Source of the DNA: a virus
Virus record (IMG/VR): IMGVR_UViG_3300036045_000005
Coordinates: 9,636-73,635 of that record
Reading direction: 5' to 3' (one strand)
Length of the DNA stretch: 64,000 bases
Part shown: in pieces, positions 17,038 through 59,330 of the stretch
How positions within the stretch are numbered: position 1 is the stretch's first letter
Layout: every line of letters begins with the position of its first letter
Translations under genes and position numbers: made by a program
Notes under the pieces: model-generated
The model's input: the letters and a program-made list of their open reading frames with translations, nothing else
What the model was told of the DNA's origin: nothing
Database searches by the model: none

Positions 17038-17270
17038 ACCGCACAGATAACCGAGCGACAAGAGCGATTAACGTCAATGATTGGGATGCCTATATTGCCC
17101 AACGCAATGCGGCGCGGCGGCGTGGGCGAAGTTTGCCGGCCGTACTGCTCGGCGCATTAACGGGGTTTGCCAGTGCCATTGTTGGCCTGGCTTTTGTGTC
17201 GTTGTTATGGGAGGCAGCGGCATGGTTACGAGGATGCTATGAAGATAGCTTCGGGCCGCGACGGCCGTAA
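17034..17270 (+). CDS. Small membrane protein
   Basis: One hydrophobic segment; ATGA coupling. Confidence 0.5.
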   Translation: MNRTDNRATRAINVNDWDAYIAQRNAARRRGRSLPAVLLGALTGFASAIVGLAFVSLLWEAAAWLRGCYEDSFGPRRP

Positions 17271-21100: not shown

Positions 21101-21113
21101 TTTGGAGGTCAGT

Positions 21114-25975: not shown

Positions 25976-26449
25976 ATGGCAATATGTGAAGGTTCAAGCG
26001 GCGCAGACCTGCTGGTAGAGTATTCCGACGATCCGAGCCTGACCTGGAATGATGTCGGGCACACCTGGAACGAAGTGAATGGTGTGGTGGGTATGCTCGA
26101 CGTGACGGGCGGCGACAAGGAAGCGGCGATGAAACGCACCTTTGGCGGCAACGTCATCGCGGGTATGACTGGGGCTGGTTTGCAAAATGTCGTTCTGGAT
26201 GTGGTTTTTGAGAACGATGCCAACAGCTTCCTGGAATTCCTGACTGACACGTGGGATGGCACGGGTGAACGGTGCTATTACATTCGCTGGTCTTATAACG
26301 AGGGTGCCTCTGGCGCGTTACGACGCACGGCCAAAGTCGCCTTGCTGACCAACCCGTTTACGGGCGGTAATGCGGGTGATGCGAACCCGGTGAGCAAGCA
26401 GTTGACGCATGTGGTTGACGGTATTATTCATCGGGATGCAGTTCCTTGA
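25976..26449 (+). CDS. Major tail (tube) protein, putative
   Basis: 157 aa, strong RBS, upstream of the chaperone and tape measure genes. Confidence 0.65.
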   Translation: MAICEGSSGADLLVEYSDDPSLTWNDVGHTWNEVNGVVGMLDVTGGDKEAAMKRTFGGNVIAGMTGAGLQNVVLDVVFENDANSFLEFLTDTWDGTGERCYYIRWSYNEGASGALRRTAKVALLTNPFTGGNAGDANPVSKQLTHVVDGIIHRDAVP

Positions 26450-26451
26450 TC

Positions 26452-26481
26452 GTAAGGGGCGGATCTCAGACCCGCCCCTAT
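26452..26481. repeat. Degenerate GTAG-type REP-like hairpin
   Basis: GTAAGGGGCGG-ATCTCAGAC-CCGCCCCTAT resembles GTAGGGGCG...CGCCCCTAC REPs. Confidence 0.45.
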
Positions 26482-26496
26482 AATAGGAGATGTGCC

Positions 26497-27318
26497 GTGG
26501 GCAATCGGGAGGTCTACGTACCGCAACACGTTTTTCATACGGCCGCTGCTGAGGATTATCCGGGGGTGACGGCCGTTTCCGCCAAACTCATCTTCCCCAA
26601 CCCGTTTACATTAGGTGATTACAAACGTTGGTACCGGGCACTCATGCCGAACCTGGCGAACAAGGAAGACCCGGATAACGATGCTTTGCTGCGCGAATAC
26701 CGGGCAGCGATGACGATTGCGGCGTTGGAGGAGATAATGCCAGAGGGTGATGTTGAGCCCAACCTGCATAACCCGGATGCGTTTAATCTGCGTAATGTGG
26801 TGATTGTGGACGGCCGTGTGCCAGACGATCTACCCATCCCTTTTGCTACCTGGGTTTGTGATTGTGCCGAGGCGTATTTTGGCAGCTACGTCGTCCTGGA
26901 GAATCGCCAGACGAAGATCGCCCGGTTGACCCGCTTCCGGCTGTCATCCAACACCATTGACGTGGCCGAACCGATGCTTGCCGGTTTGTTGCCGGATTTG
27001 CAGACTTACACTGGCAGCGTGACCTTTGCAAAGGTGATGACGAAGACGAGTTATTCGCGTTGGCAAAAGTCGTTACGTGCTTTGCCCGGCGTGGAAGCCA
27101 CCGACATTGACAACACCTTCTTCATGCGCCAATACCGGGCGGCGTTGGAACTGATTGAGAGTTGGGCGGTGGGAGATATACCGTTAAAGCTGATGAAGCA
27201 CAAAGATGGGGAGGAAGCCCCTTTGCTGCTGGCCTCGTTCCTGGTGCTGGCGGCCGAGGCATATCTTGCCAAGACGATGACCTTAAAAAAAATGCCCGCG
27301 CTGTATGGGGTCACATAA
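26497..27318 (+). CDS. Tail assembly chaperone (gpG-like), internally duplicated
   Basis: Between tail tube and tape measure genes; ends at slippery TTAAAAAAAAT (27283-27293). Confidence 0.75.
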   Translation: MGNREVYVPQHVFHTAAAEDYPGVTAVSAKLIFPNPFTLGDYKRWYRALMPNLANKEDPDNDALLREYRAAMTIAALEEIMPEGDVEPNLHNPDAFNLRNVVIVDGRVPDDLPIPFATWVCDCAEAYFGSYVVLENRQTKIARLTRFRLSSNTIDVAEPMLAGLLPDLQTYTGSVTFAKVMTKTSYSRWQKSLRALPGVEATDIDNTFFMRQYRAALELIESWAVGDIPLKLMKHKDGEEAPLLLASFLVLAAEAYLAKTMTLKKMPALYGVT

Positions 27319-27608
27319 TTCGGAAGGGTCGGGATGGCCCACCGCCCTGGTCGCTGGCGTTGGCGCGGGAGTGCCTGGATTATTACGGGAATTGGTTGCA
27401 CTTCCCGCGCCCCGATGGCCCGTTGGCGCAAGATGAATATGAGATGGATTGTGTACATAATGCCTGGGCGATTGAGCGGATTTATTCTTCGGAGAAGGAT
27501 AATGAGTTCAAGCGGCGAAACGGCCGTTTCCGGCTTTGGGTAATGTCTAAATCGCCAGAGGATGAGCAAGGCGTTTGGCTATGTCCCTGGCTCGAAGATG
27601 AAGAATAA
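27285..27608 (+). CDS. gpGT-like extension reached by -1 frameshift
   Basis: The -1 frame is open from the A8 run and encodes P..GPL.QD, typical of gpT-like tails; no RBS of its own. Confidence 0.7.
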   Translation, partial: KKNARAVWGHIIRKGRDGPPPWSLALARECLDYYGNWLHFPRPDGPLAQDEYEMDCVHNAWAIERIYSSEKDNEFKRRNGRFRLWVMSKSPEDEQGVWLCPWLEDEE

Positions 27609-28286: not shown

Positions 28287-30770
28287 ATGAATGAAAAACG
28301 GCTAGGAATCCGAATCATCACCCAATACGACGGCAAGGGCGCAGGTCAAGCCGAGCAATCGGTCAAGGGCCTAAGCGGCGCCCTGGGCAATTTAGGGAAG
28401 ATTAGCGCGGCCGTTGGCGGGGCGGGGCTGCTCCTCAAGATTGGGCGGGATGCCATTCAGACAGCCAGCAATATCGAGGAGATGCAGAGCAAGTTTAACG
28501 TCGTCTTTGGCTCCTCCGGCGATAGTGTCACCAGCCAGCTTGAACAATTTGGCGAGCAGGCTAACCGTTCACTCTACGATTTACAGGGGTTTGCAGCCAG
28601 TTTCCAGGATACGTTTGTGCCGTTGGGCTTTGCCCGTGAACAGGCGGCGGAACTCTCTGTTGGCCTGACCAAACTGACCGAGGATTTAGCCAGCTTCAAC
28701 AACCTGGCCTCTTCCGATGTAGCGGCCAACCTAAGCAGTGCGCTAGTGGGCAACCATGAGGCGGTGCGCTCCTTTGGTATTGTCATCACCGAGACAACGC
28801 TCAAAGCGGAACTGGCGGCCAACGGTTGGGATAATCTGACCGGCGCGGCGTTGGAGCAGGCCAAAGTCCAGGCGCGGCTGAACATCATCATGCGTTCCAC
28901 AACGGACGCGCAAGGTGATGCGATTCGTACCTCTGATAGTTACGCCAACCAGGTGCGGGGTATGCAGGCGGCGTGGCAAGAGTTCCTGGCAACATTGGGC
29001 ACGGCCGCTCTGCCAGTAGCAACGGCCGCCGTGCAAAATCTCGCTGAAGCAGCCAGACAGGTATCCACCGACATTAAACCATCCATCGCTGCCCTCACTG
29101 GCGAATATGGCAACGCTGTTGAGGAGATGATCGCCGACAACATCCAGGGCGCAAAGACGCTGGAGGATTTGGCGGCTGAGGGCGCGAAGCTATCCAGCAC
29201 CTACAACATGCTGGGTGGCTTTGCTGGGCATGTGACTGGCACCCATCACCAGATGCGGGAGGGGATTCTGGCGACCGGTCGTGCGATGGCGGCGCAGGCA
29301 GGTTCGTTTGGTGAGTTTGAGACGGCTGTTTCTTCCTTCACCGGTGTTGCCCGGCGCGAGTTTGAACTGTATGTGGAGACGCTGGGAATGACGGTTGAGG
29401 AGTATTACAACCTGGTTCATGCGGCGGCGGCTGTCGAATCCAGCGACAAGGCCATGCTCACGGCCGCCCAGAATGTCGGCTACCAGATGGAGCAGAACAG
29501 TGAAACCCTGGCAACGGGTAGCGGTATGGCCCAGATGTATGCAGACAAAGCCATTGCTGCCGATGAAGCCTCCCGTAAGTTTGCCATTGGGCTGGAACAG
29601 CAGCGGCTGGCGACGATTGCCGCTAACACCGCTCTGGTGAGTGCATTTAACGCAACGGCCGAGCCCGTCCAGGCTTTCCTGGCAGCGCAACAACAATCCC
29701 TGGATGCTCAAGGTGAGTGGGTGACTTATACCCGGAATAACGCGGGGGAGATTGCCGACATTTCCGAGCAGTTGGCGGCCGACCTGACGGAAGACCAGCG
29801 CACAGCCTGGGAAGAAACCCTCAAGAACACAACCGAAGGTAGCGCGGAATGGCTGACTGCCTGGAAAGCGTTGCAAGCTGACCTGACCGCCACGCAACGA
29901 GCCGAACTGATCGCCCAACGTGCCGATCTAGAAGCGGCCGGTGAGACCGTCGGCTCTGCTTACACCGGCAGCATTGAGGACATGCAGGCGGCCAAAGACG
30001 CGGCCATTGAAGCGAACAACGCGATTATCGCTTCTTACCAGCAGCTGGCCCTGGAGGGCAGCCTGGCCCTGGCGGAAGCATCGCCAGACCCGGAGGCGTT
30101 GCAGCGTACCTTAGATTATGCGGTGGCGATTGGGGCGATGAGCCAGGCGGAGGCGGACTTGCGACTGGAAGCGGCGAATACCCGCCTGGAGATTGAGGCC
30201 CTGAATCAAAAGGTGGTGGAAGGCTCAATCACTACCGCAGACGCGGCCGTGATGTACGACGAGCTAACGTCCAGTCAGGGGCGGGCGGCGGATGCCTCCG
30301 GTCGGTTGACGGAAGAAGGGGCAAAAATCGGGGCTGGCTTTCTGGAATCACTGCCGGGCATTGATCAGGTCATTGAACGCCTGAACGCCCTGGACGGCCG
30401 TCACGTGCGAACGACCGTAGAAACCAATTACGTTAGCACTGGCGAACCGGGAAAGGCGGCGGGCGGGGATAAAGATGAGGAGGTTGGCTCAACCACCGGT
30501 GGGGGCGGCCGGGCATTTGGTGGGCTGGTTTATCCCAACCGCTTATACACAGTTGGCGAACGTGGGCCGGAAGTGTTCATGCCTTCAACGGCTGGACACA
30601 TCATCCCAAATCACAAATTGGGCGGGTTAGACATGGGCAGCATTAACGTCAACGGGCCGTTGATTGGTACCGTCATTCAACAACCAGGCGAATCAGCTAC
30701 CGAACTGGCAAACCGCATTAGCCAGATATTGGCTAAACGTTCCCGGCAAATTCGGGTGGCAGGAGGGTAG
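28287..30770 (+). CDS. Tape measure protein
   Basis: 827 aa, Ala-rich helical; EE..SKFNVVFG, DLASFNN, C-terminal RA.GG.V.....Y.VGE.GPE.F.P...G.IIPN. Confidence 0.92.
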   Translation: MNEKRLGIRIITQYDGKGAGQAEQSVKGLSGALGNLGKISAAVGGAGLLLKIGRDAIQTASNIEEMQSKFNVVFGSSGDSVTSQLEQFGEQANRSLYDLQGFAASFQDTFVPLGFAREQAAELSVGLTKLTEDLASFNNLASSDVAANLSSALVGNHEAVRSFGIVITETTLKAELAANGWDNLTGAALEQAKVQARLNIIMRSTTDAQGDAIRTSDSYANQVRGMQAAWQEFLATLGTAALPVATAAVQNLAEAARQVSTDIKPSIAALTGEYGNAVEEMIADNIQGAKTLEDLAAEGAKLSSTYNMLGGFAGHVTGTHHQMREGILATGRAMAAQAGSFGEFETAVSSFTGVARREFELYVETLGMTVEEYYNLVHAAAAVESSDKAMLTAAQNVGYQMEQNSETLATGSGMAQMYADKAIAADEASRKFAIGLEQQRLATIAANTALVSAFNATAEPVQAFLAAQQQSLDAQGEWVTYTRNNAGEIADISEQLAADLTEDQRTAWEETLKNTTEGSAEWLTAWKALQADLTATQRAELIAQRADLEAAGETVGSAYTGSIEDMQAAKDAAIEANNAIIASYQQLALEGSLALAEASPDPEALQRTLDYAVAIGAMSQAEADLRLEAANTRLEIEALNQKVVEGSITTADAAVMYDELTSSQGRAADASGRLTEEGAKIGAGFLESLPGIDQVIERLNALDGRHVRTTVETNYVSTGEPGKAAGGDKDEEVGSTTGGGGRAFGGLVYPNRLYTVGERGPEVFMPSTAGHIIPNHKLGGLDMGSINVNGPLIGTVIQQPGESATELANRISQILAKRSRQIRVAGG

Positions 30771-39783: not shown

Positions 39784-40635
39784 ATGAAACGGGTTATTGG
39801 CCTTCTCTTGTTTTTGGTGTTATCTGGCGTGGATACGACCGATGGGGTGGGGGAGTATCACACCTTCCTGCCGCTTGTGGTTGGGCCAGAACCGAAGGCG
39901 GGCGTGGTTTGGCTGGACACCGAACCGGCCGATGTGAACATCCTGCATTTTGAGTGGTGGTATGACTACTCGTTGCGCGGCCGTGATGTGCCAGGCGTAG
40001 AGTTCGTACCGTTCTTCTGGTGTGACAAGTGGCCGCCTCATGCTTACGGCCGTAAAAGCCAGGACTATTTCGAGTTGGCCGAACGTCACCTGACACCTGA
40101 TTACAATAGCTACCTGCTCTTCCTAAATGAGCCAGACCTGACCGGCGACGACACAGGCGGCCAGTGCGATATGGAGCCACGCCGGGCGGCGTACCTGTAC
40201 AAGGCTATCCGCGAACAACTTCCACACGCCAAATTGGTAGGCCCGGCCGTTTCTCACCGCGATTATTGGAGTAACTGGCTCTGGCTGCGGACGTGGTACG
40301 GGCTGATTGACGAGATGGGGTTACGGCCGCCAGAAGTGGCCGCTATCCACACCTACATGAGCGAGAACCCGCAGTGGATTGTGGATTCTCTGTTCACGAT
40401 GCTGGCCGAGTTTCCCGGCTCGCCGGGCACAGTTTGGGTCACTGAGTTTGGGAACTGCGATCCGGCCGTTGTGCAATGGATGTTAGACACCTGGCAGGCG
40501 GACGGCCGTGTGTCCCGCTACGCTTACTTCACGGTGCGCGATTTTGAGCCGCACTGCGAGAACCTGTTTTATAACACGCCTGGCTACTCGCTCACGCCTG
40601 CTGGCCGTGTGTGGGTGAAGGAGCATCCTCGATGA
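39784..40635 (+). CDS. Secreted glycoside hydrolase (clan GH-A, GH128/Glyco_hydro_cc-like)
   Basis: Signal peptide, FLPLV motif, WWY.Y, FVP, FLNEPD (acid/base), H.Y, VWVTEFG (nucleophile), V.RYAYF. Confidence 0.8.
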   Translation: MKRVIGLLLFLVLSGVDTTDGVGEYHTFLPLVVGPEPKAGVVWLDTEPADVNILHFEWWYDYSLRGRDVPGVEFVPFFWCDKWPPHAYGRKSQDYFELAERHLTPDYNSYLLFLNEPDLTGDDTGGQCDMEPRRAAYLYKAIREQLPHAKLVGPAVSHRDYWSNWLWLRTWYGLIDEMGLRPPEVAAIHTYMSENPQWIVDSLFTMLAEFPGSPGTVWVTEFGNCDPAVVQWMLDTWQADGRVSRYAYFTVRDFEPHCENLFYNTPGYSLTPAGRVWVKEHPR

Positions 40636-41192
40636 GACGAACCCCCGGCTATATTGCCTTCCTGGTGCTTCTCCTATTAGTGGTCTGCCTGGCGCTGGTC
40701 TTGTGGATATTGCCGGCCGATCCTGGCGTGATAACGCCCACGCCCATCACGCCGCAACCGGAGACGGCCGCGCCGACGGATACAATGGAGAGCTACCCAA
40801 CGGCCACCAACCCTTCAGCCACGTCTACCTCCTCACCAACGGCCGTTGTTTTGCTGACGTTCACGGCGACACCCGCCCCGCCGACATTGACACCACCATC
40901 GTTCCCGACGGCCGTGCCTACAATGACAGCCACCTTGTCGCCGACCGCAACACAACTCCCGTTTCCCTCAGCCACACCTACGGCCACGCTGACGCGCCTG
41001 CCAGAGAGCTACGTGGTGCAGCGTGATGATTGGCTGATCAAGATAGCCATTCGGCTGTATGGCGGCCGGTGGGGTTGGGAGTGGCGGTGTTTGTATGAGC
41101 GGAACCGGGCGGTGATCGGGGATAACCCACACCTGATTTTTCGCGGCCAGGTCTTGCGGGGAATACGGCCGTGTGGAGGGCAAGGCGAATGA
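40632..41192 (+). CDS. Membrane-anchored LysM protein with Pro/Thr linker
   Basis: N-terminal TM, PT-rich stalk, YVVQ.DD.L.KIA.R.YG....W..LY..NR..IG.NP.LI..GQ.L. Confidence 0.85.
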   Translation: MRRTPGYIAFLVLLLLVVCLALVLWILPADPGVITPTPITPQPETAAPTDTMESYPTATNPSATSTSSPTAVVLLTFTATPAPPTLTPPSFPTAVPTMTATLSPTATQLPFPSATPTATLTRLPESYVVQRDDWLIKIAIRLYGGRWGWEWRCLYERNRAVIGDNPHLIFRGQVLRGIRPCGGQGE

Positions 41193-41392
41193 TGCAGCGA
41201 TTGATTGACCGGCTACTCGCGCCGCGCATCGCCCGCATCCAGGAAGCGGAGCGTGACCGCTTCCGCCGTCTGATTGGGCAGGTGATGGAGCGACATGAAT
41301 CACCGGCTGTGCTGCTGGCGGTGGGGCAGTTATTGGAATTACTCGACGAGGAATACAACCATGATGGTGACGATGGAGAGGACGGTTGTTGA
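41189..41392 (+). CDS. Hypothetical protein
   Basis: ATGA-coupled, 67 aa. Confidence 0.5.
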   Translation: MMQRLIDRLLAPRIARIQEAERDRFRRLIGQVMERHESPAVLLAVGQLLELLDEEYNHDGDDGEDGC

Positions 41393-42575
41393 AGCAACAA
41401 CTGTTGAAACGACAACGGTTGGCTGGCTGGCTGCCGCTACCAGGAGGGAGATCATCATTAACAGCTTGCTAGACCTTCAGGCAATTGTAGAACATGCCCT
41501 GGCCGGGATCACCATCGCCGACCGGGAAACCGGCGAGATCATCTACGCCAATCACGAAGCGGCCGAAATCCTCGGTCTGTCGCGTGATGATGTCAGGATG
41601 GCTGCTGGCACGTTGGTGGAACTTATCTATCTCAACGGCGATCCCTTTCCTATCTCTGAGACGGCCGTGATGAAGGCGCGACGATCCGGCCAGCGCGAAC
41701 GTGCCACATTCGGCGTGAAGTATCCTGACGGCTCTGTGCGTTGGGTTTCATCGAAGGCTGAGCCGCGCATACTGCCCGATGGCACGGCCGTGATTGTTGC
41801 CAATCTGATGGGGATTACGGACGAAATCAAAGGGCAGCAAGAGCAACTGGAAGCGCAGCGTGAACGGCTGGAGTTGGCCGAGTTGCAACAAAACGCCATT
41901 GATAATTTGAGCCACGAGATACGCACCCCGCTTAACCTGATTATGGGCTATGCGGATTTGCTGCTACACGGGACAGTACCGGATGACCGGATAGCCCACA
42001 CGTTGGGCATCATCCACCGCGAGGCTAAAGCGGTGGAGTGGATGGCCGAGACGCTCTTGTGGCTGGGCAAATTGGAATCTGGCAGCGAACTCGCATTTGA
42101 GCCATTAGACCTGACGGCCGTTGTCCGGTACCGGGCAGACGCGATCAGTCTGCTGGCTGAGCGTGAGCAAGTCGCGCTGATAATCGCTGGCGAACTGCCC
42201 GCTTGTCGCGTCTCCGGCCATGAAACCCTCCTTTCCCTGGCGATAGGCAACCTGGTTGGCAACGCCATCAAATTCACCAAGTACAGCGAAACTAGGCAGG
42301 TAACGGTCAGCCTGGAAGTGGGGGAGGGGGAGGCGACGGTCTCCGTCACCGATACCGGCATTGGTATCAAGCCTGAACATCTATCGCTCATCTTCGAGAA
42401 ATTCCGCCAGTTGGACGGTGGCAGCACCCGCAAATTCAGGGGGACGGGTATTGGGCTGCACTTTGTAAAACTCGTTGCGCAGGCCCATGGCGGCCGTGTG
42501 GAAGTGGAAAGTGAATTTGGCAAGGGGTCAACGTTCCGGTTGGTGTTGCCCCTGGAGGTCCCCCCTAGTGCATGA
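41361..42575 (+). CDS. Orphan cytoplasmic PAS-domain sensor histidine kinase
   Basis: PAS (GEIIYAN..A..ILG, DGS.RWV), H-box SHEIRTPL, N-box NLVGNAIKFT, G1 DTGIGI, F-box IFEKF.Q, G2 GTGIGL. Confidence 0.95.
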   Translation: MMVTMERTVVEATTVETTTVGWLAAATRREIIINSLLDLQAIVEHALAGITIADRETGEIIYANHEAAEILGLSRDDVRMAAGTLVELIYLNGDPFPISETAVMKARRSGQRERATFGVKYPDGSVRWVSSKAEPRILPDGTAVIVANLMGITDEIKGQQEQLEAQRERLELAELQQNAIDNLSHEIRTPLNLIMGYADLLLHGTVPDDRIAHTLGIIHREAKAVEWMAETLLWLGKLESGSELAFEPLDLTAVVRYRADAISLLAEREQVALIIAGELPACRVSGHETLLSLAIGNLVGNAIKFTKYSETRQVTVSLEVGEGEATVSVTDTGIGIKPEHLSLIFEKFRQLDGGSTRKFRGTGIGLHFVKLVAQAHGGRVEVESEFGKGSTFRLVLPLEVPPSA

Positions 42576-43196
42576 AGCAGCCCGGCAGTTAGCGCAACTG
42601 GAAGAAACATCTCGTGCCAACGGGGTGGAGATTGCGGCCGTGCATGAAGACCTGCGCGAACTCAAGGATGAATTTCGGGGACTGTTTAAGCAGCTTCGGG
42701 GCGATCTGGCCTACATGCAGAGCCTCCAATTGAAGGATGCCGAAGGGACAAAAAAAAATTGGCAAGGGTGGCCGCCTTTGTTGGAGACACTTTACTTCCC
42801 AGGCTCAACCAGATTGAGCGACAGCTAACGGAACTGGAGCGACTAAGGTTTGAATCTCTTGAACAGCGTTTGGTGGAATTGGAGAAGCGCATTGACAGGC
42901 AGGACACGCGATGGGAACGAGTAACGGCCGCGACCGGCACAGGCCGCCTGGATGCTCGTGCCGCCTTGCACCAGATGATGGTGAAGGCGTTCAGCCTGGC
43001 GGACATGGCAACCCTCTGTTTGGAGATGGACATTGAGTACGACGAGCTACCAGGCGACACCATTTCTCACAAGGTCACGTCGCTCATTGCTTACATCGGT
43101 CGGCGGAACCAACGCTCTGATGGTGAGTGGGATTTGTCAAATCTGGTGAAAAAATTGAAGGAGAAACGGCCGTCTTACAAGTGGCCGGATGTGTGA
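42568..43196 (+). CDS. Coiled-coil plus EAD7-like domain protein split by an A9 run
   Basis: ORF 42568-42828 and ORF 42759-43196 join by a -1 shift at A9 (42750-42758). C-terminal F...D+..LC.E+.I.YD.LPG.T...K...LI.Y..RR....L...L...RP...W pattern. Confidence 0.65.
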
Positions 43197-43660
43197 TGAA
43201 AGAGATTATTCAAATGATGGTCACGGCCGTGATGCTGGCAATTTCTCAGCCAGCAGACCCCACGCCGATTTTTACCCCGCCACCTGATAATTACACAGGC
43301 TCTTTGTCTCGCTACGATCCGCAGGTGATGGAGCGGGTGATTGAGTGGCGATATGAACATAATGTTCCAGCCGGATTTGACCCCTGGCCGACATACGCCA
43401 CCTATGTGGCGGTGGTGGATTGCCGCAACGTGGGCCGTTCCGGCTGGATGACCCTGACCATTGAGGGGGAGACACGGCCGCCGGAGCGAATCTATGTCAC
43501 CGATTGCGCGACACCTGGAACACCAGCTGCGGAGTGGATGGAGCGTGAGCAAATAGCGGCAGAGATAGATTACGGTTCCTGGGTGCGATTTGGCATTGAA
43601 GATGGAAAGGGAGCATGGGCTGAGATCGTGCTGGATGACGATACCATGCTCAGTAATTAG
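43196..43660 (+). CDS. Secreted RlpA-like double-psi beta-barrel protein (candidate lytic enzyme)
   Basis: Signal-like N-terminus; VAV.DC..VG, .V.DC, A.E.D motifs. Confidence 0.5.
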   Translation: MKEIIQMMVTAVMLAISQPADPTPIFTPPPDNYTGSLSRYDPQVMERVIEWRYEHNVPAGFDPWPTYATYVAVVDCRNVGRSGWMTLTIEGETRPPERIYVTDCATPGTPAAEWMEREQIAAEIDYGSWVRFGIEDGKGAWAEIVLDDDTMLSN

Positions 43661-43791
43661 TGCGGTTTCCGCGCAACCCACCTTTCTCCCTTCCCCCAGG
43701 GGTTGCGCGTTTACCGGCGGCGACGGCTTCCTCCTGGCCGTCGCCGCTCTCCATTTTACAGACGATGTAAATGGGGTAGGGGGATGAGTGT

Positions 43792-44007
43792 ATGGTCTAC
43801 GCAATTACCAAAAACAGGGTTGCTCATGTTTTGCGATTGCCCGCAGGTTTCGCCTGCGGCCGTCGCCCACATGCGTATGTAGTCACCGAGGAGATGCCTG
43901 CCGATTGTCGGCCGTGTGGTCAGTGTCGTGGTGTGATGGTGGGGGAGGGGAAACGGCCGAGGCAGCACGGCGGGCCAGGGCGGGGCGGTCTCCGGGTTAA
44001 GAAGTAA
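43792..44007 (+). CDS. Small Cys/His hypothetical protein
   Basis: H...CG...CRPCGQC; GGGGA RBS. Confidence 0.45.
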   Translation: MVYAITKNRVAHVLRLPAGFACGRRPHAYVVTEEMPADCRPCGQCRGVMVGEGKRPRQHGGPGRGGLRVKK

Positions 44008-44156
44008 TTGTATACTCGTAATAATTTGCATTAACAGGAGTATAAATAAAGGAGGGGGGGACGGGAAGCAAACCACTCCCCCAGGGGCGACGGTCGTTTA
44101 TCGCAGTTGGCAAACGGCCACTTCGGATGCCTCAGCGCAGGCTGTATAATTTACGC

Positions 44157-44306
44157 ATGGAACCAGGGACAACAACCCAGGCGGAGGCGATTGCGTTTCT
44201 CATTTGTTTTGTGGGGATAGCCTGGATTTATTGGTGCATAGCCGTGCTGTTGCTTCTGGAATGGCTTGGCCTTATCCCCCCTGCCCCGCCCCTTGAAGAA
44301 GAGTAA
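44157..44306 (+). CDS. 49-aa membrane peptide, probably leaderless (not in ORF track)
   Basis: TATAAT at 44145-44150 and ATG at 44157; long hydrophobic stretch AIAFLICFVGIAWIYWCIAVLLLLEWLGLI. Confidence 0.5.
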   Translation: MEPGTTTQAEAIAFLICFVGIAWIYWCIAVLLLLEWLGLIPPAPPLEEE

Positions 44307-44310
44307 TACG

Positions 44311-44371
44311 ATTGTAATACAATGGTGAAACAACTTTGGGATTGACGGCCGTTGTAACGTTGTGTTACAAT
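44311..44371 (+). promoter_or_regulatory. Promoter with TTGTA/TACAA operator palindromes
   Basis: TTGACG(44342)-18-TACAAT; palindromes ATTGTA-A-TACAAT (44311) and TTGTAAC-N5-GTTACAA (44352). Confidence 0.65.
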
Positions 44372-44378
44372 GCGGCGC

Positions 44379-44567
44379 ATGAGCGACACCAAAGAGGATA
44401 CAGTTCCCGTTAGAATAAGCACCGAGAAGCACAAAGAGCTACAGATTATCAGCCAGCAAACAGAATTATCACTACGCTCTCTGGTGGACAGAGCGGCTGA
44501 TTTGCTGATAGAGCATTGGGGGCAGACGGGGACTGTGCCGCCTAAGACAGAGCGTCGTTCTAAGTAG
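44379..44567 (+). CDS. Ribbon-helix-helix-like regulator (leaderless)
   Basis: VPVRIS...HKEL..IS......L..LVD.A..LL. Confidence 0.65.
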   Translation: MSDTKEDTVPVRISTEKHKELQIISQQTELSLRSLVDRAADLLIEHWGQTGTVPPKTERRSK

Positions 44568-44703
44568 ATAGCAAGTCGGCCGTGCGGGTGCTGTAACACC
44601 ACACACGGCCTGAACCGCCAGCCTGATTCACTTTGCAGCGGCCAGGTTGGTGGTCTATATCTATAGTACCTAACTTCGTACTATACGCAAAAGGTTTATT
44701 GCG

Positions 44704-44753
44704 AAGCCCGCTGTGTGGCGATCTGAGGATTGCCGACAGCGGGCTTTTTGTTT
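44704..44753 (+). terminator. Hairpin with T-tract directly before an RBS
   Basis: AAGCCCGCTG...CAGCGGGCTTTTTGTTT followed by AGGAG. Confidence 0.6.
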
Positions 44754-44764
44754 AGGAGAGCGGC

Positions 44765-44971
44765 ATGAAAAGGCAGACAAAGAAAGGCGGGCAATATCAC
44801 CTGACATCCGAAGAGGTGGAGGCGTTGACCAAAATACGCCGGCAGCACAAGCGTCGCAAGCCTCCGCAGCGGAAGGCTGCCGGGCGTGAGCGGCATCCTC
44901 TGAATAGAGATAATGTTATCGTCATCCTGCTCATCTTTATTTTTCTGTATCTCGTCCTTCAGGGGGTGTAG
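44765..44971 (+). CDS. Small basic protein with C-terminal TM
   Basis: AGGAG RBS; VIVILLIFIFLYLVL. Confidence 0.65.
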   Translation: MKRQTKKGGQYHLTSEEVEALTKIRRQHKRRKPPQRKAAGRERHPLNRDNVIVILLIFIFLYLVLQGV

Positions 44972-44972
44972 C

Positions 44973-45263
44973 ATGATAAATTGGATACCACTTCTCGCAA
45001 ACACCAACGCGCTCCAAAAGCAGGATGAATACTACACCCAACTCAGGCAGGCTCTCACCGCTCCGGCCCGCCGTTGCTTGCTGTGCGGCCGTGCCCAACC
45101 AGCCAGCACCAAAGACTGGTATGAGATTGACATTGATGCGGATGGGACGCAGTTTCTTGTCTGCCCCGACGAGGTGTCAGACAAGAGCAACGACCTGGAA
45201 GTAGCCAGAGTTTTCATCAATGTGGGGATGAAGATTCAGGAGATGCGAATGCGAAATGGATAA
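44973..45263 (+). CDS. Hypothetical zinc-binding protein
   Basis: CLLCG...VCP. Confidence 0.55.
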   Translation: MINWIPLLANTNALQKQDEYYTQLRQALTAPARRCLLCGRAQPASTKDWYEIDIDADGTQFLVCPDEVSDKSNDLEVARVFINVGMKIQEMRMRNG

Positions 45264-45669
45264 ACCAATCATCTTTCTTGCGGTGTTGGCACTTGCCCTA
45301 TGTGGTCTGGCGACGCTTGCCCTACGGCCGACGGTGGACAAGGTGGCGACGGCCGTCATCGAGGAGCAGACGCGCACCGATCCCATGGAGAGCCTGATCA
45401 CCTATTCCGCCGAAACGGAGCGCAAGACTAGCCCGATCATCTACATCTTCTGTGGCATGTTGCCGCTGGTAGTATTATTTACGGCCGTGTTCTTCATGGA
45501 ACACGCCACCGACTTTCTGCGGGAGCGTCGGCTGTCAAGGCGGAAAGGTCGGCGACACTCCCCCACCCTGCCACTCCCTCACCGGCCGGACGTATCACAT
45601 CTATACGAACCATCTCGTGTCCCCCTACCTGCCCCGCCACATGACAGTCAAGGAGATCGCCAATGGTAA
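45256..45669 (+). CDS. Two-TM membrane protein
   Basis: Two hydrophobic segments and a Pro-rich tail. Confidence 0.65.
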   Translation: MDKPIIFLAVLALALCGLATLALRPTVDKVATAVIEEQTRTDPMESLITYSAETERKTSPIIYIFCGMLPLVVLFTAVFFMEHATDFLRERRLSRRKGRRHSPTLPLPHRPDVSHLYEPSRVPLPAPPHDSQGDRQW

Positions 45670-47234
45670 AAGTGACGGCTGTCTTGCTGCTCTTCCTGCT
45701 GCTGACCGCCTGCGCCACCCCACCTGCTCAACCGGGCGCAGGGGGTTATAGTTATGATCCAGCGGTCAACGCCACTATTGCTGCGCGTGGTGCCCAGGAT
45801 GCGGCGGCGACCTATGAGGCAGTGCAACGGGCAACAACCGTATCGGTGCAGCAAACGGCTGTTGCTGCTCAGAACGCCACAGGAACGGTGCAGGCGGCGG
45901 CCACCCGGACAGCAGCGGTTGCTACCAGCACGGCCGAAAGCCTGAGCATCCAAGCTACCAGTATTGCGCTGGCGGCCGTGCAGACAGGCAACGCCATCAA
46001 CGCCCAGGCCACGCAGATCGCAGTGGTGGCCGAGCAGACTCGATTGGCCCAGGAAGCGGCTAATATCGAGATGGCTCGCGCCGACCAGCAACGACGGCTA
46101 GAAAACCAGCGCGACCGGGAGGAGATGTGGAACACCATTATCTTCCCAGCCCTGGTGTTGGTGGCGGTGTTGGTGGCTGTTGGCGGCATCGTGTATGCCG
46201 CCGTCTATATCTGGCGCCGGACGCAGCCGGTCATCCATGTGACCATCAACGGCCGTGATGTGCCGATGATCCTGGATGGACAGCGCGGTGGCTACAAATT
46301 GCTGCCGCAAAATGTGATAGGTGATGTGCTGGCGCCGCCTGCCCCGGCGAGTGCGGCCGTGCAGCCCGAACCACTACCTGCCTTGCCGGAAGGCCACGTA
46401 GTGATTGCTGGCCCAACGCGTAGCGGGAAGACAACCACCCTCCTGGCAATTTTGCAACACCGGCAAGACGTGGTGGCGATAGACCCGCACGGGGCACCAG
46501 GCAAATGGGGCGATGCCCGTATGCTTGGTGCGGGGCGCAATTTTCAGGAAATTGCAGCCTTCATGCAATGGATGGAAGCGGAATTGAATCGCCGTGCGCA
46601 AGCATTGGCGGCCGACGCAAACACCAAGTTTCCTGAGATGACAGTGGTGGCCGATGAATTACCGGCCATAGCCGATGAGCTGGGTGGAGATCGTGCCTAC
46701 AGCAGTTGGAAGAAGTGGGTGCGCGAAGGATGGAAATTCGGATTGTACTTTGTCTTTTCGTCTCAAAGTCTCCAGGTAAAGCCATTGGGACTAGAAGGCG
46801 AAAAGGACATACTGCGGAACTTCGTGGCCGCTATCGCTCTGGGCGGGGAGGCGGTTGAACGGTATCCAGATTTGGCGCGGGGGATGGAACGTCCGGCTGT
46901 GCTGCGCACACTGCGCGGGACTGCCCGTGTCATCATCCCGCAAGTGGGATCGCCATCCTCCACCTCACCGACCAATGGCTATGTCGCCCCACCGGTCATC
47001 AACCTGCCCAATCCGCGCAGCCAGGCGGAGGTAGACGGCCGTGCCATGGATGGTGTTATCGCCGAGTGCGATTCGCTCAATGACGTAGGTCGTGTGCTGA
47101 TGGATGCTGGCCCGGATGATATGGAAACACGGCCGTCTGGTCAGATGTTGCGGGAACGGGTGCGGCCGGCGTTGGCCTGGCGCATTAACTATCTGAGTTG
47201 CCCAGATTCAAGTCGGATATTGATCGGACGATAA
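45663..47234 (+). CDS. Lipoprotein-anchored, membrane-spanning FtsK/HerA-like P-loop ATPase
   Basis: Lipobox LLTAC, Ala/Thr/Gln stalk, TM, Walker A GPTRSGKT, IDPH, Walker B VVADE, REG.K.G....SSQ. Confidence 0.8.
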   Translation: MVKVTAVLLLFLLLTACATPPAQPGAGGYSYDPAVNATIAARGAQDAAATYEAVQRATTVSVQQTAVAAQNATGTVQAAATRTAAVATSTAESLSIQATSIALAAVQTGNAINAQATQIAVVAEQTRLAQEAANIEMARADQQRRLENQRDREEMWNTIIFPALVLVAVLVAVGGIVYAAVYIWRRTQPVIHVTINGRDVPMILDGQRGGYKLLPQNVIGDVLAPPAPASAAVQPEPLPALPEGHVVIAGPTRSGKTTTLLAILQHRQDVVAIDPHGAPGKWGDARMLGAGRNFQEIAAFMQWMEAELNRRAQALAADANTKFPEMTVVADELPAIADELGGDRAYSSWKKWVREGWKFGLYFVFSSQSLQVKPLGLEGEKDILRNFVAAIALGGEAVERYPDLARGMERPAVLRTLRGTARVIIPQVGSPSSTSPTNGYVAPPVINLPNPRSQAEVDGRAMDGVIAECDSLNDVGRVLMDAGPDDMETRPSGQMLRERVRPALAWRINYLSCPDSSRILIGR

Positions 47235-54484: not shown

Positions 54485-55109
54485 GTGGCGCGTTGCTGGC
54501 ATTTTTGCCACCGAGCGAGATGTTTTGTTGCAGGCGGCGGCCAGCCATATGATGGCCGTTTTCGGGCTGGATGGTGTGGTCTATTTGCGCTCCAAGCGCA
54601 ACAAAGCTACGCCGCCCTATGAGCCAGCCTTCTTCCTGGAAGATATGTCTACCAATCGCTCCAATAAATTCCTGGCGGTAGCCTCGCTTTTAACCCCCAG
54701 CACGTTGTTGGTTTTTGACGACGTGGAGACGATTCGGAATTATCCGCAATCTATGACCCGGAACATCATCAATCACCTTGCGCCGCGCACCCGGTACAAA
54801 ATTATTGCCGGAAGTGCGCTGGTGACAAATGAACTGGCTGACCTATATGCCCAATTTGCGGTGCTAGACAAGCAGGTTCTTCATGCCAATCATTACTGGT
54901 GTTTTGCGGAGGAGCATCGTGAGGTATCGGTGTTTGACGGCCGTTCGGTGGTCTCTAACAAAGACGTGGATTATCTGGCGGCCAAACTGCGGCCGTTCAT
55001 CCACTTCGATTTGGAGCCAGAGAATGATGTCCAGGTGGCATTGTATGCAGCCATACGGTCTGCGCCGCTCCTGGAACGGGTACAGGATTTGTCTGACTTG
55101 AGGTTGTGA
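54462..55109 (+). CDS. Degenerate SNF2 N-lobe-like protein (no Walker A)
   Basis: LVFDD...IRN, DLYAQF..LD..VL....Y..F...H and N...LAAK+.P.I match the 49456 helicase. Confidence 0.6.
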   Translation: MDRKPWTEWRVAGIFATERDVLLQAAASHMMAVFGLDGVVYLRSKRNKATPPYEPAFFLEDMSTNRSNKFLAVASLLTPSTLLVFDDVETIRNYPQSMTRNIINHLAPRTRYKIIAGSALVTNELADLYAQFAVLDKQVLHANHYWCFAEEHREVSVFDGRSVVSNKDVDYLAAKLRPFIHFDLEPENDVQVALYAAIRSAPLLERVQDLSDLRL

Positions 55110-56170
55110 TGGGCAAGATTTATTTGATGCAAAATGTTTACGAGGCCGCCCTGGAACGGCTGGAGTTTGTGAAGCAGAACTTTGACCGGATCGTGGTGGC
55201 TTTTAGTGGCGGCAAAGATTCTACGGCCACAAGAGGATTGTCTGACGAGGTATTCCCGGAATCCGCTATCTATTTCTGGGATAAGGAAAGTAATCTGATC
55301 AGCACGGCCGAATTTGTGCGCCAGACGTTCGATTCCCTTCACCCAGGCGTGAAACCATATTGGTTCTGCCTGCGCTACAAGATGCGTAATGCGCTCAGTG
55401 TCTACGAACCGTACTGGTACTGCTGGGATGAGGCGGAGCGGGAAAAGTGGATTTACCAGCCCCCGCAACGGCTGTATGTCTATATGGCCGGGAACAACAT
55501 CCTGGAAGGCTACGATCCAGAGCGGCACAACCTGTATAAATTATTTGCCAATTACGTGAGCGAGAATGGCAAATGGCGGACGGCCGTCCTTGTTGGTTTG
55601 CGAACAGATGAGAGCCTGAACCGCTTCCGCGCCGTCACCAAACACCCCCAATTCGGGCAGGACTGGATTACCCAAACCGATGCCCTGAATTGTTACAACG
55701 TGTACCCTATCTACGATTGGAGCTTTGGTGATGTGTGGACATACATCGCCCGGAACAAACTGCCCTACGCGCCGGTCTACGACAAGATGTTCAAGGCTGG
55801 CCTGTATAAGCGGAATATGCGGATCAGCCAGTCGTTTTGTGATGTAAGCAAACAGGGTATCCCCATCATCCGCGAGATTGAGCCAGAATCTTTTGAGCGA
55901 TTTATGAATCGTGTGGCCGGGATGAACTCGCTCACTCATGTGGATTTGAGCGAAGTGCTGAAGAAGGCCAAAGAGGTAGAGTTTGACTTCCTCCTGCAAC
56001 TATACCCGGAGAAGGTGCGGCAACAGGTGGAACGGCGATTGGACAAAAGCCCGGCATTGCAGAAGGATGATCCCCACGTCATCCGGGCATTGTTGAATAA
56101 TGACATACGGCTGAAGCGGGTAAACCGGCAGCCGGTAATAGATGTGAAAGAGAGGTACAAGGACATATGA
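55109..56170 (+). CDS. ibrA: IbrA-like PAPS reductase-family protein
   Basis: NVYEAA.ERL, FSGGKDS, RNA.S...P.W..WD, VGLR.DESLNR, YPIYDW...DVW, MRISQ.F, RV.G.N. Confidence 0.88.
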   Translation: MGKIYLMQNVYEAALERLEFVKQNFDRIVVAFSGGKDSTATRGLSDEVFPESAIYFWDKESNLISTAEFVRQTFDSLHPGVKPYWFCLRYKMRNALSVYEPYWYCWDEAEREKWIYQPPQRLYVYMAGNNILEGYDPERHNLYKLFANYVSENGKWRTAVLVGLRTDESLNRFRAVTKHPQFGQDWITQTDALNCYNVYPIYDWSFGDVWTYIARNKLPYAPVYDKMFKAGLYKRNMRISQSFCDVSKQGIPIIREIEPESFERFMNRVAGMNSLTHVDLSEVLKKAKEVEFDFLLQLYPEKVRQQVERRLDKSPALQKDDPHVIRALLNNDIRLKRVNRQPVIDVKERYKDI

Positions 56171-56637: not shown

Positions 56638-57239
56638 ACAAAGCAGCTTTAAGCAAAGCAATACAAGATCGCGCAATGGAGTTGGTGGAGATACGGCCGA
56701 TGTCCGACGAGGCCAACATGCTCATCAGCCAGGCAATGGATGAACACAGCTTCCAGACCCGCCATGATGCCTACCGGTTTCTTCGCACCACCGGTCGGCT
56801 GAAAGACGTAGACACCGGCGGCGAGGTACTTAATCAGGATGAGGCCGTCGCCGCTTTGGTGGCCGAATTTAGCTGCCATAAACAAACAGCCAGAGAACAT
56901 GTCGCCAAAGCCGGACGGCGCAAACGGCACCCTGACTGGCAGCCACCAGCCTGGGGTGGATTCCGGCCTGGGGCGAGACGGCCGCGCAAATTTGTTATTG
57001 ATGTCCGCAACGGCCGTGCCATCGTGAGCAAATATGTGAATGCTGGTGTGGGGCTGATGCAGTACACAGCGGCCGTGAACTGGGAGGAGATGGAGGAGTG
57101 GGCGGCAACGGCCGTTACTGCTCAGGGGGGGGCGCTCAATATCTCTGGACAATATCGTGTGCCAGATGAGTTGCTTAAGACGGCCGTCTGGGATGATGTC
57201 AGCGAATCTCAGGAGGAGACTGATGCAAATACCGGATAA
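56634..57239 (+). CDS. Hypothetical protein
   Basis: ATGA-coupled; WGG.RPGA.RP AT-hook-like motif. Confidence 0.6.
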   Translation: MNKAALSKAIQDRAMELVEIRPMSDEANMLISQAMDEHSFQTRHDAYRFLRTTGRLKDVDTGGEVLNQDEAVAALVAEFSCHKQTAREHVAKAGRRKRHPDWQPPAWGGFRPGARRPRKFVIDVRNGRAIVSKYVNAGVGLMQYTAAVNWEEMEEWAATAVTAQGGALNISGQYRVPDELLKTAVWDDVSESQEETDANTG

Positions 57240-57384
57240 TTTGCGCGAAGCGCTAGAGGCTGGCGGGGAAATGGCCTGTTTCGCTATGGTGATCGACGAG
57301 GTCGCTGGAATCGTCATCAAGGCCACTGATAGCGACATCAAGCGGGCCATTTGCGTAGACAGTAGACAGGGGTATGATGAGAGC

Positions 57385-58167
57385 ATGAGCGAGAATCTAT
57401 TGATACCTGTTGAGCAAAAAGATGTAGCTCTATACGAAGATAACATCACGGCCGTCCGTGCTGATGACGGCCGTGTGTATGTTTCTATTCGCCATATGTG
57501 CCGTGCGCTGGGGCTGGATGAAAACGGGCAGCGTCAGCGAATGCGCCGTCATGCGGTGCTGGGACGGGGGCTAGGGGTGTGCAAAATACACACCCCTGGC
57601 GGTGCGCAAGAGACGGCCGTGTTGCGCGTTGACCTGGTTCCCCTCTGGCTCTCTGGCGTTCGCGCCAGTATGGTAAGTGAGGAGATACGGCCGAAGCTGG
57701 TGCAGTTCCAGGAGCAGGCGGCGGCGGTGTTGTGGGAGGCGTTTCAGGACGGCCGTCTATCGGCCGATTCTGATTTTGATGAGCTATTGGCCCAGGCCAG
57801 CCCGGACGCAGTGGAGGCGTACCAGGTGGCGCTGGCGGTGGTCAAGCTGGCGCGGCAGCAGATTGTGATGGAGGCGCGGCTGGATGATTACGGCCGTCGC
57901 CTGGACAACATCGAGGCTTCACTTGGCGATCCAGATCGTTATGTCAGCAAGGAGCAGGCTGCCCGCATCTCTCAGGGGGTGCGGGCTATCGGCCATGTGC
58001 TATCGAAGCGCAGCGGCCGTAGCGAGTATGGTGCGGTGTACGGCGAACTTTACCGCAGCTTCGACACGAGTAGTTACCGCGAACTTCCAGCTAGTCAGTA
58101 CGAGCAGGCCATGAAGTGGCTCAATGCCTGGTACCAGCGATTGACGAATAGCGATATTCCGTTTTGA
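57385..58167 (+). CDS. Phage antirepressor (P22_AR_N plus ORF6C-like)
   Basis: VYV.+R.+C..LGL....Q..R+, LWL.G+....V....R.KL..FQ; C-terminal VY..L...F...SY..LP..QY..A..WL. Confidence 0.85.
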   Translation: MSENLLIPVEQKDVALYEDNITAVRADDGRVYVSIRHMCRALGLDENGQRQRMRRHAVLGRGLGVCKIHTPGGAQETAVLRVDLVPLWLSGVRASMVSEEIRPKLVQFQEQAAAVLWEAFQDGRLSADSDFDELLAQASPDAVEAYQVALAVVKLARQQIVMEARLDDYGRRLDNIEASLGDPDRYVSKEQAARISQGVRAIGHVLSKRSGRSEYGAVYGELYRSFDTSSYRELPASQYEQAMKWLNAWYQRLTNSDIPF

Positions 58168-58380: not shown

Positions 58381-58463
58381 TTGACAATGTGGTACTCCCT
58401 GGTGTACCATACAAAATTATAGGAATACCAGCAGACACCAGCGTATGCGCTGGTGTACCATAC
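58381..58463 (+). promoter_or_regulatory. par promoter with centromere-like repeats
   Basis: TTGACA-18-TACCAT; CTGGTGTACCATAC twice (58399, 58450); palindrome ACACCAGCG-TATG-CGCTGGTGT (58435-58456). Confidence 0.7.
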
Positions 58464-58472
58464 GGAGGAAGT

Positions 58473-59330
58473 ATGTCTAAAAAGGTGATTACCGTAGAGA
58501 ATCGCAAGGGCGGCGTGGGTAAAACCACAACGGCCGTCAACCTGGCTATCGGCCTGGCGCAGCGGCTGAACGCAAATGGCGGGGGGAATGTGTTACTGAT
58601 TGACCTTGATCCGCAGAGCGACGCGGCCAGAGCATTGAGGTTGAATCCTGACGGCCGTTGTGTTAGCAAGGTGTTGACCGGCAAAGGCACTCAGGATGAG
58701 TTGCGTGAGAACGTCATGGCAACCAGCCAACCCAACGGCTACCAACGCCCCGGCCTTTTCCTGCTACCAGCCTCCGACGATCTGGCCGAAGCGAAGACCC
58801 GACTGGTGGCTGATGTAGTGGCGCGGCAAGCAACGGCCGCGCTACTGGGGCGCACTCCTCCACCCAATGCCAGTCTGACCGATGTGCTTGAGGAAAAGCT
58901 TGGCCTCTTCAAACGAGCCTTCACCTTCATTGTTCTGGATTGCCCGCCAACCCTGGACATTTTGCAGAAAGCAGTACATCAATTTGCGGACACGGCCGTT
59001 GTGCCGGTGAAACTGGATTATCATGGCACGTCGGCAACTGGCCGCCACACGACCAACATCCTGGCAGATCAGGCTGAGGGTTTAGACATCCACATCGAAG
59101 CCATCCTGCCGACGTTCGTGGAGCCCCAGCACAACCTGACCAAGCTGATGATGCGCGAATTGATTAAGGTGTATGGCCGTCACCTGATCGCCAAGCCAGT
59201 TCCCAAAACGGTGCGGGTGGCCGAGGCACCGTCATTAGGCGCGACGGTATTAGAGTACGCGCCCGATTCGGCGGCGGCCGATGCCTATTACTCCCTGGTG
59301 AACCGCGTCTATGAAGGAGCAAAAAAATGA
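58473..59330 (+). CDS. parA: ParA/Soj partition ATPase
   Basis: N.KGGVGKTT, LLIDLDPQ, VLDCPP, EAP..G. Confidence 0.93.
   Translation: MSKKVITVENRKGGVGKTTTAVNLAIGLAQRLNANGGGNVLLIDLDPQSDAARALRLNPDGRCVSKVLTGKGTQDELRENVMATSQPNGYQRPGLFLLPASDDLAEAKTRLVADVVARQATAALLGRTPPPNASLTDVLEEKLGLFKRAFTFIVLDCPPTLDILQKAVHQFADTAVVPVKLDYHGTSATGRHTTNILADQAEGLDIHIEAILPTFVEPQHNLTKLMMRELIKVYGRHLIAKPVPKTVRVAEAPSLGATVLEYAPDSAAADAYYSLVNRVYEGAKK

Follow-up and report, generated by a model that had tools for sequence, protein, structure and literature searches.

An EAD7 adaptor domain in a tailed phage, probably expressed through a slip on a run of nine A's

Do two overlapping open reading frames (ORFs) that meet at a run of nine A's make up one gene or two, and what would their product do for the virus that carries them? 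The question is raised by a locus in a 64,000-nucleotide (nt) stretch of viral DNA (hereafter the window), which comprises bases 9636-73635 of the 73,635-base virus record IMGVR_UViG_3300036045_000005. All coordinates given for this virus are window positions, and frame is position mod 3. After a histidine kinase gene, ORF1 (42568-42828, + strand, frame 1; GTG start, 86 amino acids (aa), stop at 42826-42828) runs across nine A's (the A9 run, 42750-42758, + strand), and ORF2 (42759-43196, + strand; 145 aa from TTG, stop at 43194-43196) follows in the -1 frame (frame 0) and carries an effector-associated domain (EAD) of the EAD7 family. The original prediction for this DNA held that a -1 shift at the run appends such a domain to a coiled coil, and that the product is a phage-encoded decoy or adaptor against host immune signalling. 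Our analysis partly supports that interpretation. What is new is that a phage carries an EAD7 adaptor domain, whose expression probably involves a slip on the A-run.

A change of coding frame at the A9 run

The run is made up of nine A's with TTG 42759 directly behind it, as had been predicted, and the ORF1 frame reads across it as ACA AAA AAA AAT. A slippery heptamer, A_AAA_AAA (42750-42756), lies in the ORF1 frame and fits the pattern X_XXY_YYZ; its presence says little, since any nine-base run holds one such heptamer in every phase. Frame 0 is open from 42690, with TTG 42759 and GTG 42768 as its candidate starts. As it is open across the run, the two frames would be fused without a stop by a -1 slip on the heptamer or by an mRNA that carries one A more, and the fused reading runs Thr-Lys-Lys-Lys-Leu, its Leu being encoded by TTG 42759. 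The prediction that the shift joins two coiled-coil ORFs seamlessly therefore stands as far as the absence of a stop at the join is concerned, but a seamless coiled coil was too strong a claim: model confidence is low where ORF1 ends, in the junction with its Gly, three Lys and a further Gly and Pro. Upstream, ORF1 has a GGAGG ribosome-binding site (42554-42558, + strand) 9 nt before its GTG, and the stop of the kinase gene overlaps this GTG in GTGCATGA, from which the kinase gene is predicted to be translationally coupled to ORF1.

Coding potential was scored by codon usage trained on the phage's other genes, for which in-frame windows average 0.41 (standard deviation 0.16). Frame 1 scored +0.50 per codon over 42568-42749 and -0.47 after the run, the latter being the level of off-frame sequence. 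Frame 0 scored -0.58 per codon just before the run, -0.08 in the 23-codon overlap after it, where it was the best of the three frames, and +0.32 beyond. The protein sequences tell the same tale. The core of ORF1 forms a helix at residues 2-52, in which one heptad register dominates, and is coiled-coil-like over residues 1-63; in its AlphaFold2 (AF2) model the helix 2-52 has a predicted local distance difference test score (pLDDT) of 80-93. The frame-1 tail (residues 64-86) has much Pro, Gly and Trp and little charge, which sets it apart from ORF2 and from the core of ORF1 (Pro+Gly make up 22% and charged residues 13%, vs 6% and 35% in the core), and its pLDDT goes from the 50s down to below 50 (blocks of 53, 48 and 43; <50 at residues 71-73 and 75-86), so that by composition and model the tail looks non-coding and unfolded. 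The first residues of ORF2 are helical in the AF2 model (pLDDT 91-96) and align with the N-terminus of a homologue, P0120, which places the beginning of frame-0 coding at the run and not later. The coding scores, the composition of the ORF1 tail and the model thus agree with the proposal that the two ORFs behave as one coding sequence that switches frame at the A-run. It is this coincidence of the A9 with the point where the coding potential switches frame that goes beyond chance. Apart from the A9 and a run of eight A's discussed below, none of the seven homopolymers of at least 7 bases marks a frame change inside a gene.

Identity of the EAD7 domain and its viral occurrence

A Pfam search bore out the suggestion that the helical domain of ORF2 is of the EAD7 type. 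ORF2 matched PF19960 (PF19960.5) with an E value of 2.6e-16 and 59.6 bits, against a curated cut-off of 32, and the domain is almost certainly an EAD7. The match lies at 42966-43121 (+ strand; ORF2 residues 70-121) and covers profile positions 1-52 of 62 only, because an insertion relative to the homologues precedes the last EAD7 helix in the alignment. A six-frame search of the whole record revealed this single EAD7 (58.1 bits), and none of 14 control genomes had a match. Searches with ORF1 and ORF2 returned no other Pfam, PHROG or PADLOC family at E 0.001 (DUF7310 alone appeared, at E 0.14), and no effector, enzymatic or signalling domain is fused to the EAD7, which has only helices N-terminal to it, in ORF2 and in ORF1. 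The AF2 model of ORF2, built from a 40-row alignment, is small and all-alpha with a mean pLDDT of 91.9; one long helix (residues 2-58) is followed by helices at 62-77, 80-89, 102-116 and 126-136, and the domain extends to about residue 136. No solved structure matched ORF2 by sequence. A two-copy test of ORF2 self-association, with a score of 0.01 against a mark of 0.42, bears neither way.

EAD7 is rare in phages, judging from the searches made here. A tblastn search with ORF2 of 50,697 GenBank phage records returned nothing. Among 2.9 million viral contigs, a pattern scan gave 29 matches, of which two were confirmed as further EAD7 loci (L003 and L004); two is a lower bound, since the scan used one degenerate pattern. 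The proteins at both loci score above the Pfam EAD7 cut-off. The helix-EAD7 protein of L003 (168 aa, at 4731-5237 of that locus) has tail-fibre-like genes ahead of it and is followed by a small protein that contains two hydrophobic segments. That of L004 (141 aa, at 4998-5423 of its locus) ends in a C-terminal hydrophobic helix, and its gene is set among those for an integrase, a membrane protein and a C39-like peptidase matching an endolysin PHROG. As far as their sequences and surroundings indicate, all three viral EAD7 proteins are adaptor-only and set among late or lysis-side accessory genes. The literature searched, which extended to the text of PMC7159879 and PMC8195603 as accessible and not to their supplementary domain-architecture lists, held no report of a phage-encoded EAD.

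Proposed expression and function of the two-frame locus

The reading that we favour is that of one phage gene, written in two frames, for an adaptor-only protein. Standard decoding would begin at GTG 42568, coupled to the end of the kinase gene, and would give an 86-aa helical short form. At the A9 a fraction of expression would go to the -1 frame, either by RNA polymerase adding one A or by the ribosome slipping on A_AAA_AAA, to yield a long form of about 209 aa, in which a linker connects the ORF1 helix to a second long helix and this is followed by an EAD7 death-fold-like bundle. The two forms would share the first helix, and the slip would set their ratio. The long form would act through homotypic EAD-EAD binding, since it has no enzymatic or effector part, and would most likely be a dominant-negative decoy that ties up host EAD7 proteins and keeps them from recruiting their effectors. 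Runs of nine A or T are described as sites of efficient bacterial RNA-polymerase slippage, mostly with addition of bases (PMC5009743), and one added A would produce exactly the fused frame; our data do not separate RNA-polymerase from ribosomal slippage. On the sequence evidence the balance tips slightly towards expression of the long form by a slip. The reading as a whole, a slip-made two-frame adaptor acting as a decoy, is the best explanation that we can offer and a tentative one, falling a little short of an even call. The points that weigh against it concern the homologues, the slip site, the fold and the proposed action on host proteins, and they are given below together with the alternatives that they bear on.

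The first alternative is that there are two separate genes, ORF1 with its 86 aa and ORF2 with its own start at TTG 42759 or GTG 42768 (142-145 aa), the A9 being incidental or an A-rich leader. The homologues point this way. An exhaustive search with ORF2 returned 410 proteins at E <= 0.001 (27 at <= 1e-10, and its own cluster only at <= 1e-30); all 410 match through the EAD7 part, and the fused form was found in none. No ORF1-like N-terminus was present in the 33 ORF2 matches that were read, and in a word-based search none of 31 candidates was a longer protein with ORF1 residues 1-63, the latter being weak evidence. The closest small homologues (P0052, 117 aa; P0072, 123 aa; P0104, 123 aa; P0106, 117 aa; P0058, 103 aa; P0115, 122 aa; P0120, 146 aa) are stand-alone proteins of about the size of ORF2 and of the same layout, a short helix followed by EAD7, and they share the short helix, an Arg-Trp motif and a Thr-Gly-x-Leu motif ahead of the domain. 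The predicted start of P0120 aligns with the TTG/GTG of ORF2, and the L003 protein is likewise encoded by a single ORF without a shift and has an N-terminus unlike ORF1. Moreover, the gene callers of the source databases give ORF2 as 142 aa from GTG 42768, and the sequence AAGG stands 12 nt before the TTG.

Against two genes stands the quality of the ORF2 starts. In a survey of 48 genes for Shine-Dalgarno (SD) sequences, GGAGG or AGGAG was found in 27 and a four-base core at 4-12 nt in 12 more, counts that are biased upwards as the start choice takes the best SD among the candidates. Strong SDs at 4-9 nt are usual in this phage, whereas the TTG of ORF2 has only the weak and distant AAGG and GTG 42768 has none. 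The start cannot be moved downstream, since homology and structure reach the first residues of ORF2. In addition, two genes would leave ORF1 with a 23-residue tail that scores as non-coding and is modelled as unfolded, and the window's only A9 is precisely where the frame changes, as is a run of eight A's upstream of the tape-measure gene. The length of the overlap was considered as a further argument against separate genes and was dropped, as with a crude choice of starts 4 of the 16 overlapping gene pairs also overlap by 74-86 nt; these long overlaps elsewhere are probably mis-assigned starts. Taken together, we regard two separate genes as an unlikely account but one to be reckoned with, and should ORF2 have an independent start, the locus would come down to an ordinary, if rare, accessory gene.

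As to the slip site, an A9 alone is not rare, for at least one A9 or T9 occurred in 21 of 100 dinucleotide-preserving shuffles of the window. A_AAA_AAA is a recognised -1 heptamer that in Escherichia coli is reported to be much less prone to shift than A_AAA_AAG (PMC5009743). The SD-like GAAGGA that had been noticed about 12 nt upstream of the run is indeed there (42732-42737, + strand; 12 nt before the run), with a second SD-like motif, GAAGGG, at 42742-42747; a role of GAAGGA as a frameshift stimulator is putative. A weak nine-pair hairpin with three G-U pairs (42761-42782, + strand; -9.5 kcal/mol) starts 4 nt after the heptamer and is no better than chance, 37 of 200 shuffles folding at least as well. 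A minus-strand terminator made up of a hairpin and a T-run (42776-42761) was also considered for this place and rejected: four such sites occur in 40500-45000 against 3.9 expected, no more than shuffled sequence gives, and the coding is all on the + strand.

The run of eight A's (A8; 27285-27292, + strand, within ORFs at 26446-27608) is the only other run of at least 8 A's on this strand. It reads TTA AAA AAA ATG, that is, A_AAA_AAA in the upstream frame, and the frame-1 ORF stops eight codons later. Here too coding potential moves from frame 1 to frame 0, for 96 codons (+0.45 before and +0.21 after the run). The A8 lies about 1 kb upstream of the tape-measure gene, and tailed phages place a conserved -1 frameshift of the tail chaperone upstream of that gene (PMC5009743). 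From its position, the A8 site is probably a tail-assembly-chaperone frameshift. The parallel is one of position, since the ORFs at the A8 site have no PHROG or other family match; in addition, no hairpin better than shuffles was found there, and inspection by eye revealed no SD-like motif. Of these points, the missing family match and the hairpin result detract from the case for slipping, as do the commonness of an A9, the heptamer and the hairpin at the A9 site.

As to function, EADs are small non-enzymatic domains that occur once on a core component of a nucleoside triphosphatase (NTPase) system and again on an effector (PMC7159879), and they are held to couple the two by homotypic binding (PMC7159879, PMC8195603); EAD7 is listed among the EADs that recruit effectors (PMC7159879). 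By analogy, the long form may act through homotypic EAD7 binding to host proteins, a proposition for which the arguments are evenly balanced. Against it counts that the phage genome has its one EAD7 only, with no cognate copy on the neighbours (the kinase and a protein without family match). The best cellular match to ORF2, P0006 (1145 aa), has five EAD7 repeats, an NTPase N-terminal domain, a bacterial death-like domain 1 and an Ig-like domain, and exemplifies the multi-EAD proteins that the phage protein might meet.

The fold was compared with known structures. A Foldseek search of the Protein Data Bank (PDB) and of BFVD (viral models) returned nothing at E <= 0.001. A full structural alignment against 48,161 chains listed 50 rows, 26 of them single-helix matches to residues 1-62 and the other 24 covering residues 58-145. 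Among these 24 rows were 23 with CARD, death, DED or bacterial death-like domains, including two viral FLIPs. These 23 chains aligned over 69-80 residues with a root-mean-square deviation of 2.3-4.1 and Z scores of 6.1-7.4, which lie below the tool's safe level for helical bundles. According to the tool's own warning, such values can stem from common helical arrangements, and the death-like fold is therefore not established; a death-fold-like bundle is a coherent description of the model, in which the EAD7 has four long helices and not six.

The direction of action is harder to call. Blocking host EAD7 proteins would be the most economical direction for a phage, and recruiting them for the lysogen is the main alternative; that the protein is a decoy is by analogy possible, though doubtful. 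In the alternative, expression would be the same and function the opposite: the locus would be a prophage module that aids the lysogen, its EAD7 recruiting host effectors against superinfecting phages or timing death or lysis. Such a module would sit well with the temperate-type genes of the phage (a P22-type antirepressor domain and a ParA-like ATPase), with its place at the end of the tail and lysis block, where accessory genes usually lie, with the like settings of the EAD7 genes of L003 and L004, and with the description of EAD7 as effector-recruiting (PMC7159879). It sits badly with PADLOC, in which ORF1, ORF2 and their neighbours match no defence model beyond weak kinase-domain and P-loop matches, with the phage having neither an effector nor a second EAD7, and with the window ORFs scanned, a part of the whole, among which no integrase turned up. 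We consider a lysogen module unlikely. An extended form of the decoy reading would make the locus the phage kin of viral FLIP and CARD-only decoys, a death-fold (EAD7) adaptor-only protein that caps or mis-assembles the EAD7-dependent recruitment of effectors in a host immune system of the multicellular type, at a dose set by slippage on the A9, co-expressed with the kinase, which lacks a response regulator, and perhaps controlled by its phosphorylation, with the short form tuning assembly as gpG does for gpGT; this, too, is speculative and improbable.

Finally, the break may lie in the DNA, in a gene with A10 (or A7) that has undergone a one-base indel, be it a recent inactivating mutation, a phase-variable run of differing length among phage genomes or an error of the assembly consensus. 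Replication slippage and sequencing error both occur most often at homopolymers, the coding signature fits a one-base indel in a single gene equally well, and the run length was judged from contigs and not from reads. The contigs of two sequencing runs, which come from one sample, possibly the record's own source, and are not independent, both have A9, at word depths of 32 and 51, and differ from the window at none of 1201 bases. Two JGI/IMG contigs and two Logan contigs, which may not be independent, also encode the exact 86-aa ORF1. Two runs from another sample and study (X3 and X4, depths 3-8) show 0 differences to the window and have no contig bridging the A9, X3 covering 42352-42691 and 42790-43061 and X4 covering 42352-42745 and 42866-43052. 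The contigs of X3 and X4 also break inside the EAD7 gene, ending at 43061 and 43052 and both resuming at 43115 (gap 43062-43114); at these depths the shared break may be due to chance or to strain variation. With A9 in the contigs of both runs from the first sample, a second A-run of the same signature where a real programmed shift is expected, and a zero-frame ORF1 that retains a good start coupled to the kinase gene, a break at the DNA level is the least likely of the alternatives.

Phage setting and comparison with known systems

By its gene content the element is a tailed phage, with terminase, portal, major head protein, tape measure and terminal repeats. The record comes from sediment metagenomes, is 73.6 kb long, has direct terminal repeats and is rated complete, and according to the ORF list coding is on the + strand throughout. 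PHROG matches identified the large terminase (15094-16770; 7.2e-85), the portal (17167-18765), the major head protein (21102-23534) and the tape-measure protein (28287-30770), all on the + strand, as well as a helicase and a DNA methyltransferase. The phage origin of the DNA that had been supposed is thus borne out by its structural genes and by the complete record with terminal repeats. The ORF of the major head protein encodes 810 aa, of which the PHROG match spans residues 385-799 only and leaves the N-terminal half unassigned. The phage stands apart in the searches that we ran, none of which returned a relative of more than 50% identity. Its terminase is at most 27% identical to that of any of the 50,697 GenBank phage records, scans of viral contigs with the terminase, ORF2, P0120 and the gene downstream of ORF2 gave no match, nor did the terminase and P0104 match any genome contig, and a word-based protein search returned the window's own cluster only. 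P0120 is on record from four contigs of 2-7 kb; when it was used to scan metagenomes, a distant EAD7 locus (L002) came up and not the DNA of P0120 itself.

The histidine kinase gene (41295-42575, + strand) has matches to PAS (5.3e-10), HisKA (1.3e-10) and HATPase_c (3.7e-28) in Pfam and to PHROG 10912 'kinase' (8.1e-49), and its product has no membrane segment. No match to the response-regulator family Response_reg (PF00072) was found in the 73.6-kb record; 12 of the 14 control genomes had matches. The kinase-EAD7 module is preceded by a glycosyl hydrolase and a LysM-like endolysin-type protein. At its other end the stop of ORF2 overlaps the ATG of the next gene (TGATG), which encodes a 154-aa protein (43196-43660, + strand) with a hydrophobic N-terminus and no family match, and which is the last gene before a terminator-like hairpin (43716-43748, + strand; 13-pair stem with 10 G-C pairs) found by a consensus scan. 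From this arrangement, the kinase and the EAD7 gene belong to one transcription unit, which probably terminates at the hairpin.

Further along, 45663-47234 encodes a 523-aa protein with an N-terminal hydrophobic segment and a P-loop of weak FtsK/SpoIIIE similarity (PADLOC mad8, 2.8e-07). The P22-type antirepressor domain and the ParA-like ATPase identified by Pfam (57157-58167 and 58389-59330) hint at a temperate, possibly plasmid-like lifestyle. Two proteins with a PAPS-reductase domain, one of which also has DUF3440, and a 604-aa DNA methyltransferase (at 3341-4480, 55106-56170 and 7521-9335) may form a DNA-modification set. No tRNA genes were found, and an Rfam search gave two sub-threshold matches only (18.9 bits against a gathering score of 50, and 14.2 against 270).

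The domain invites comparison first with the bacterial EAD7 (PF19960), which belongs to NTPase-centred conflict systems (Kaur, Burroughs, Iyer and Aravind 2020, PMC7159879; 2021, PMC8195603). EADs were defined by comparative genomics as homotypic adaptors between sensor and effector in the conflict systems of multicellular bacteria, and they have been likened to death, CARD and pyrin domains (PMC7159879, PMC8195603). The phage domain scores above the family cut-off and, in keeping with the description of the family (PMC7159879), is small, all-helical and non-enzymatic. It differs in being encoded by a phage, in a single copy, with no cognate copy on a neighbouring core component. It is fused to neither an effector nor an NTPase; instead it lies C-terminal to coiled-coil helices, is split over two frames and has an insertion before its last helix. 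An adaptor-only EAD7 protein of a phage would offer a direct handle on EAD systems and could be used as a bait for their host partners.

In its proposed expression the locus resembles gpG/gpGT, the tail-assembly chaperone of phage lambda, in which two products have a common N-terminal part and a -1 shift close to where the short ORF ends determines their ratio, as is proposed here, and the phage's own A8 site, upstream of the tape-measure gene, has the same A_AAA_AAA heptamer. Unlike gpG/gpGT, ORF1/ORF2 is not a tail gene, and its -1 frame would add an adaptor domain of the signalling type; unlike at the tail site, where the zero frame continues for 8 codons past the A8, it continues for 23 codons past the A9. 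The two-frame layout would be a recoding site outside the tail-chaperone gene of a tailed phage, and it can be tested independently of function. With dnaX of E. coli (A_AAA_AAG) the site has in common an A-run in lysine codons, a hairpin 4 nt behind the heptamer and, 12 nt ahead of the run, the SD-like GAAGGA, and with dnaX of Thermus thermophilus a run of nine bases, the length of the transcriptional-slippage run there (PMC5009743). The differences are that the shifted product of dnaX is shorter and that of the phage longer, that the last base of the phage heptamer is A and not G, that the phage hairpin does no better than shuffled sequence, and that the phage site is known from sequence alone.

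Viral FLIPs (vFLIPs) are the third comparison. Like them, the phage protein consists of an adaptor-type helical bundle encoded by a virus, without an effector, and two vFLIP chains were among its structural matches (2f1s_A, MC159, Z 6.3; 5lde_B, vFLIP, Z 6.2), at scores in a range that is unsafe for helical bundles. vFLIPs such as MC159 act as decoys in animal viruses. There is no sequence relationship between them and the phage protein, for which a decoy function is proposed by analogy. If the phage protein does block host EAD7 proteins, viruses would have captured immune adaptors as decoys in bacteria as they have in animals.

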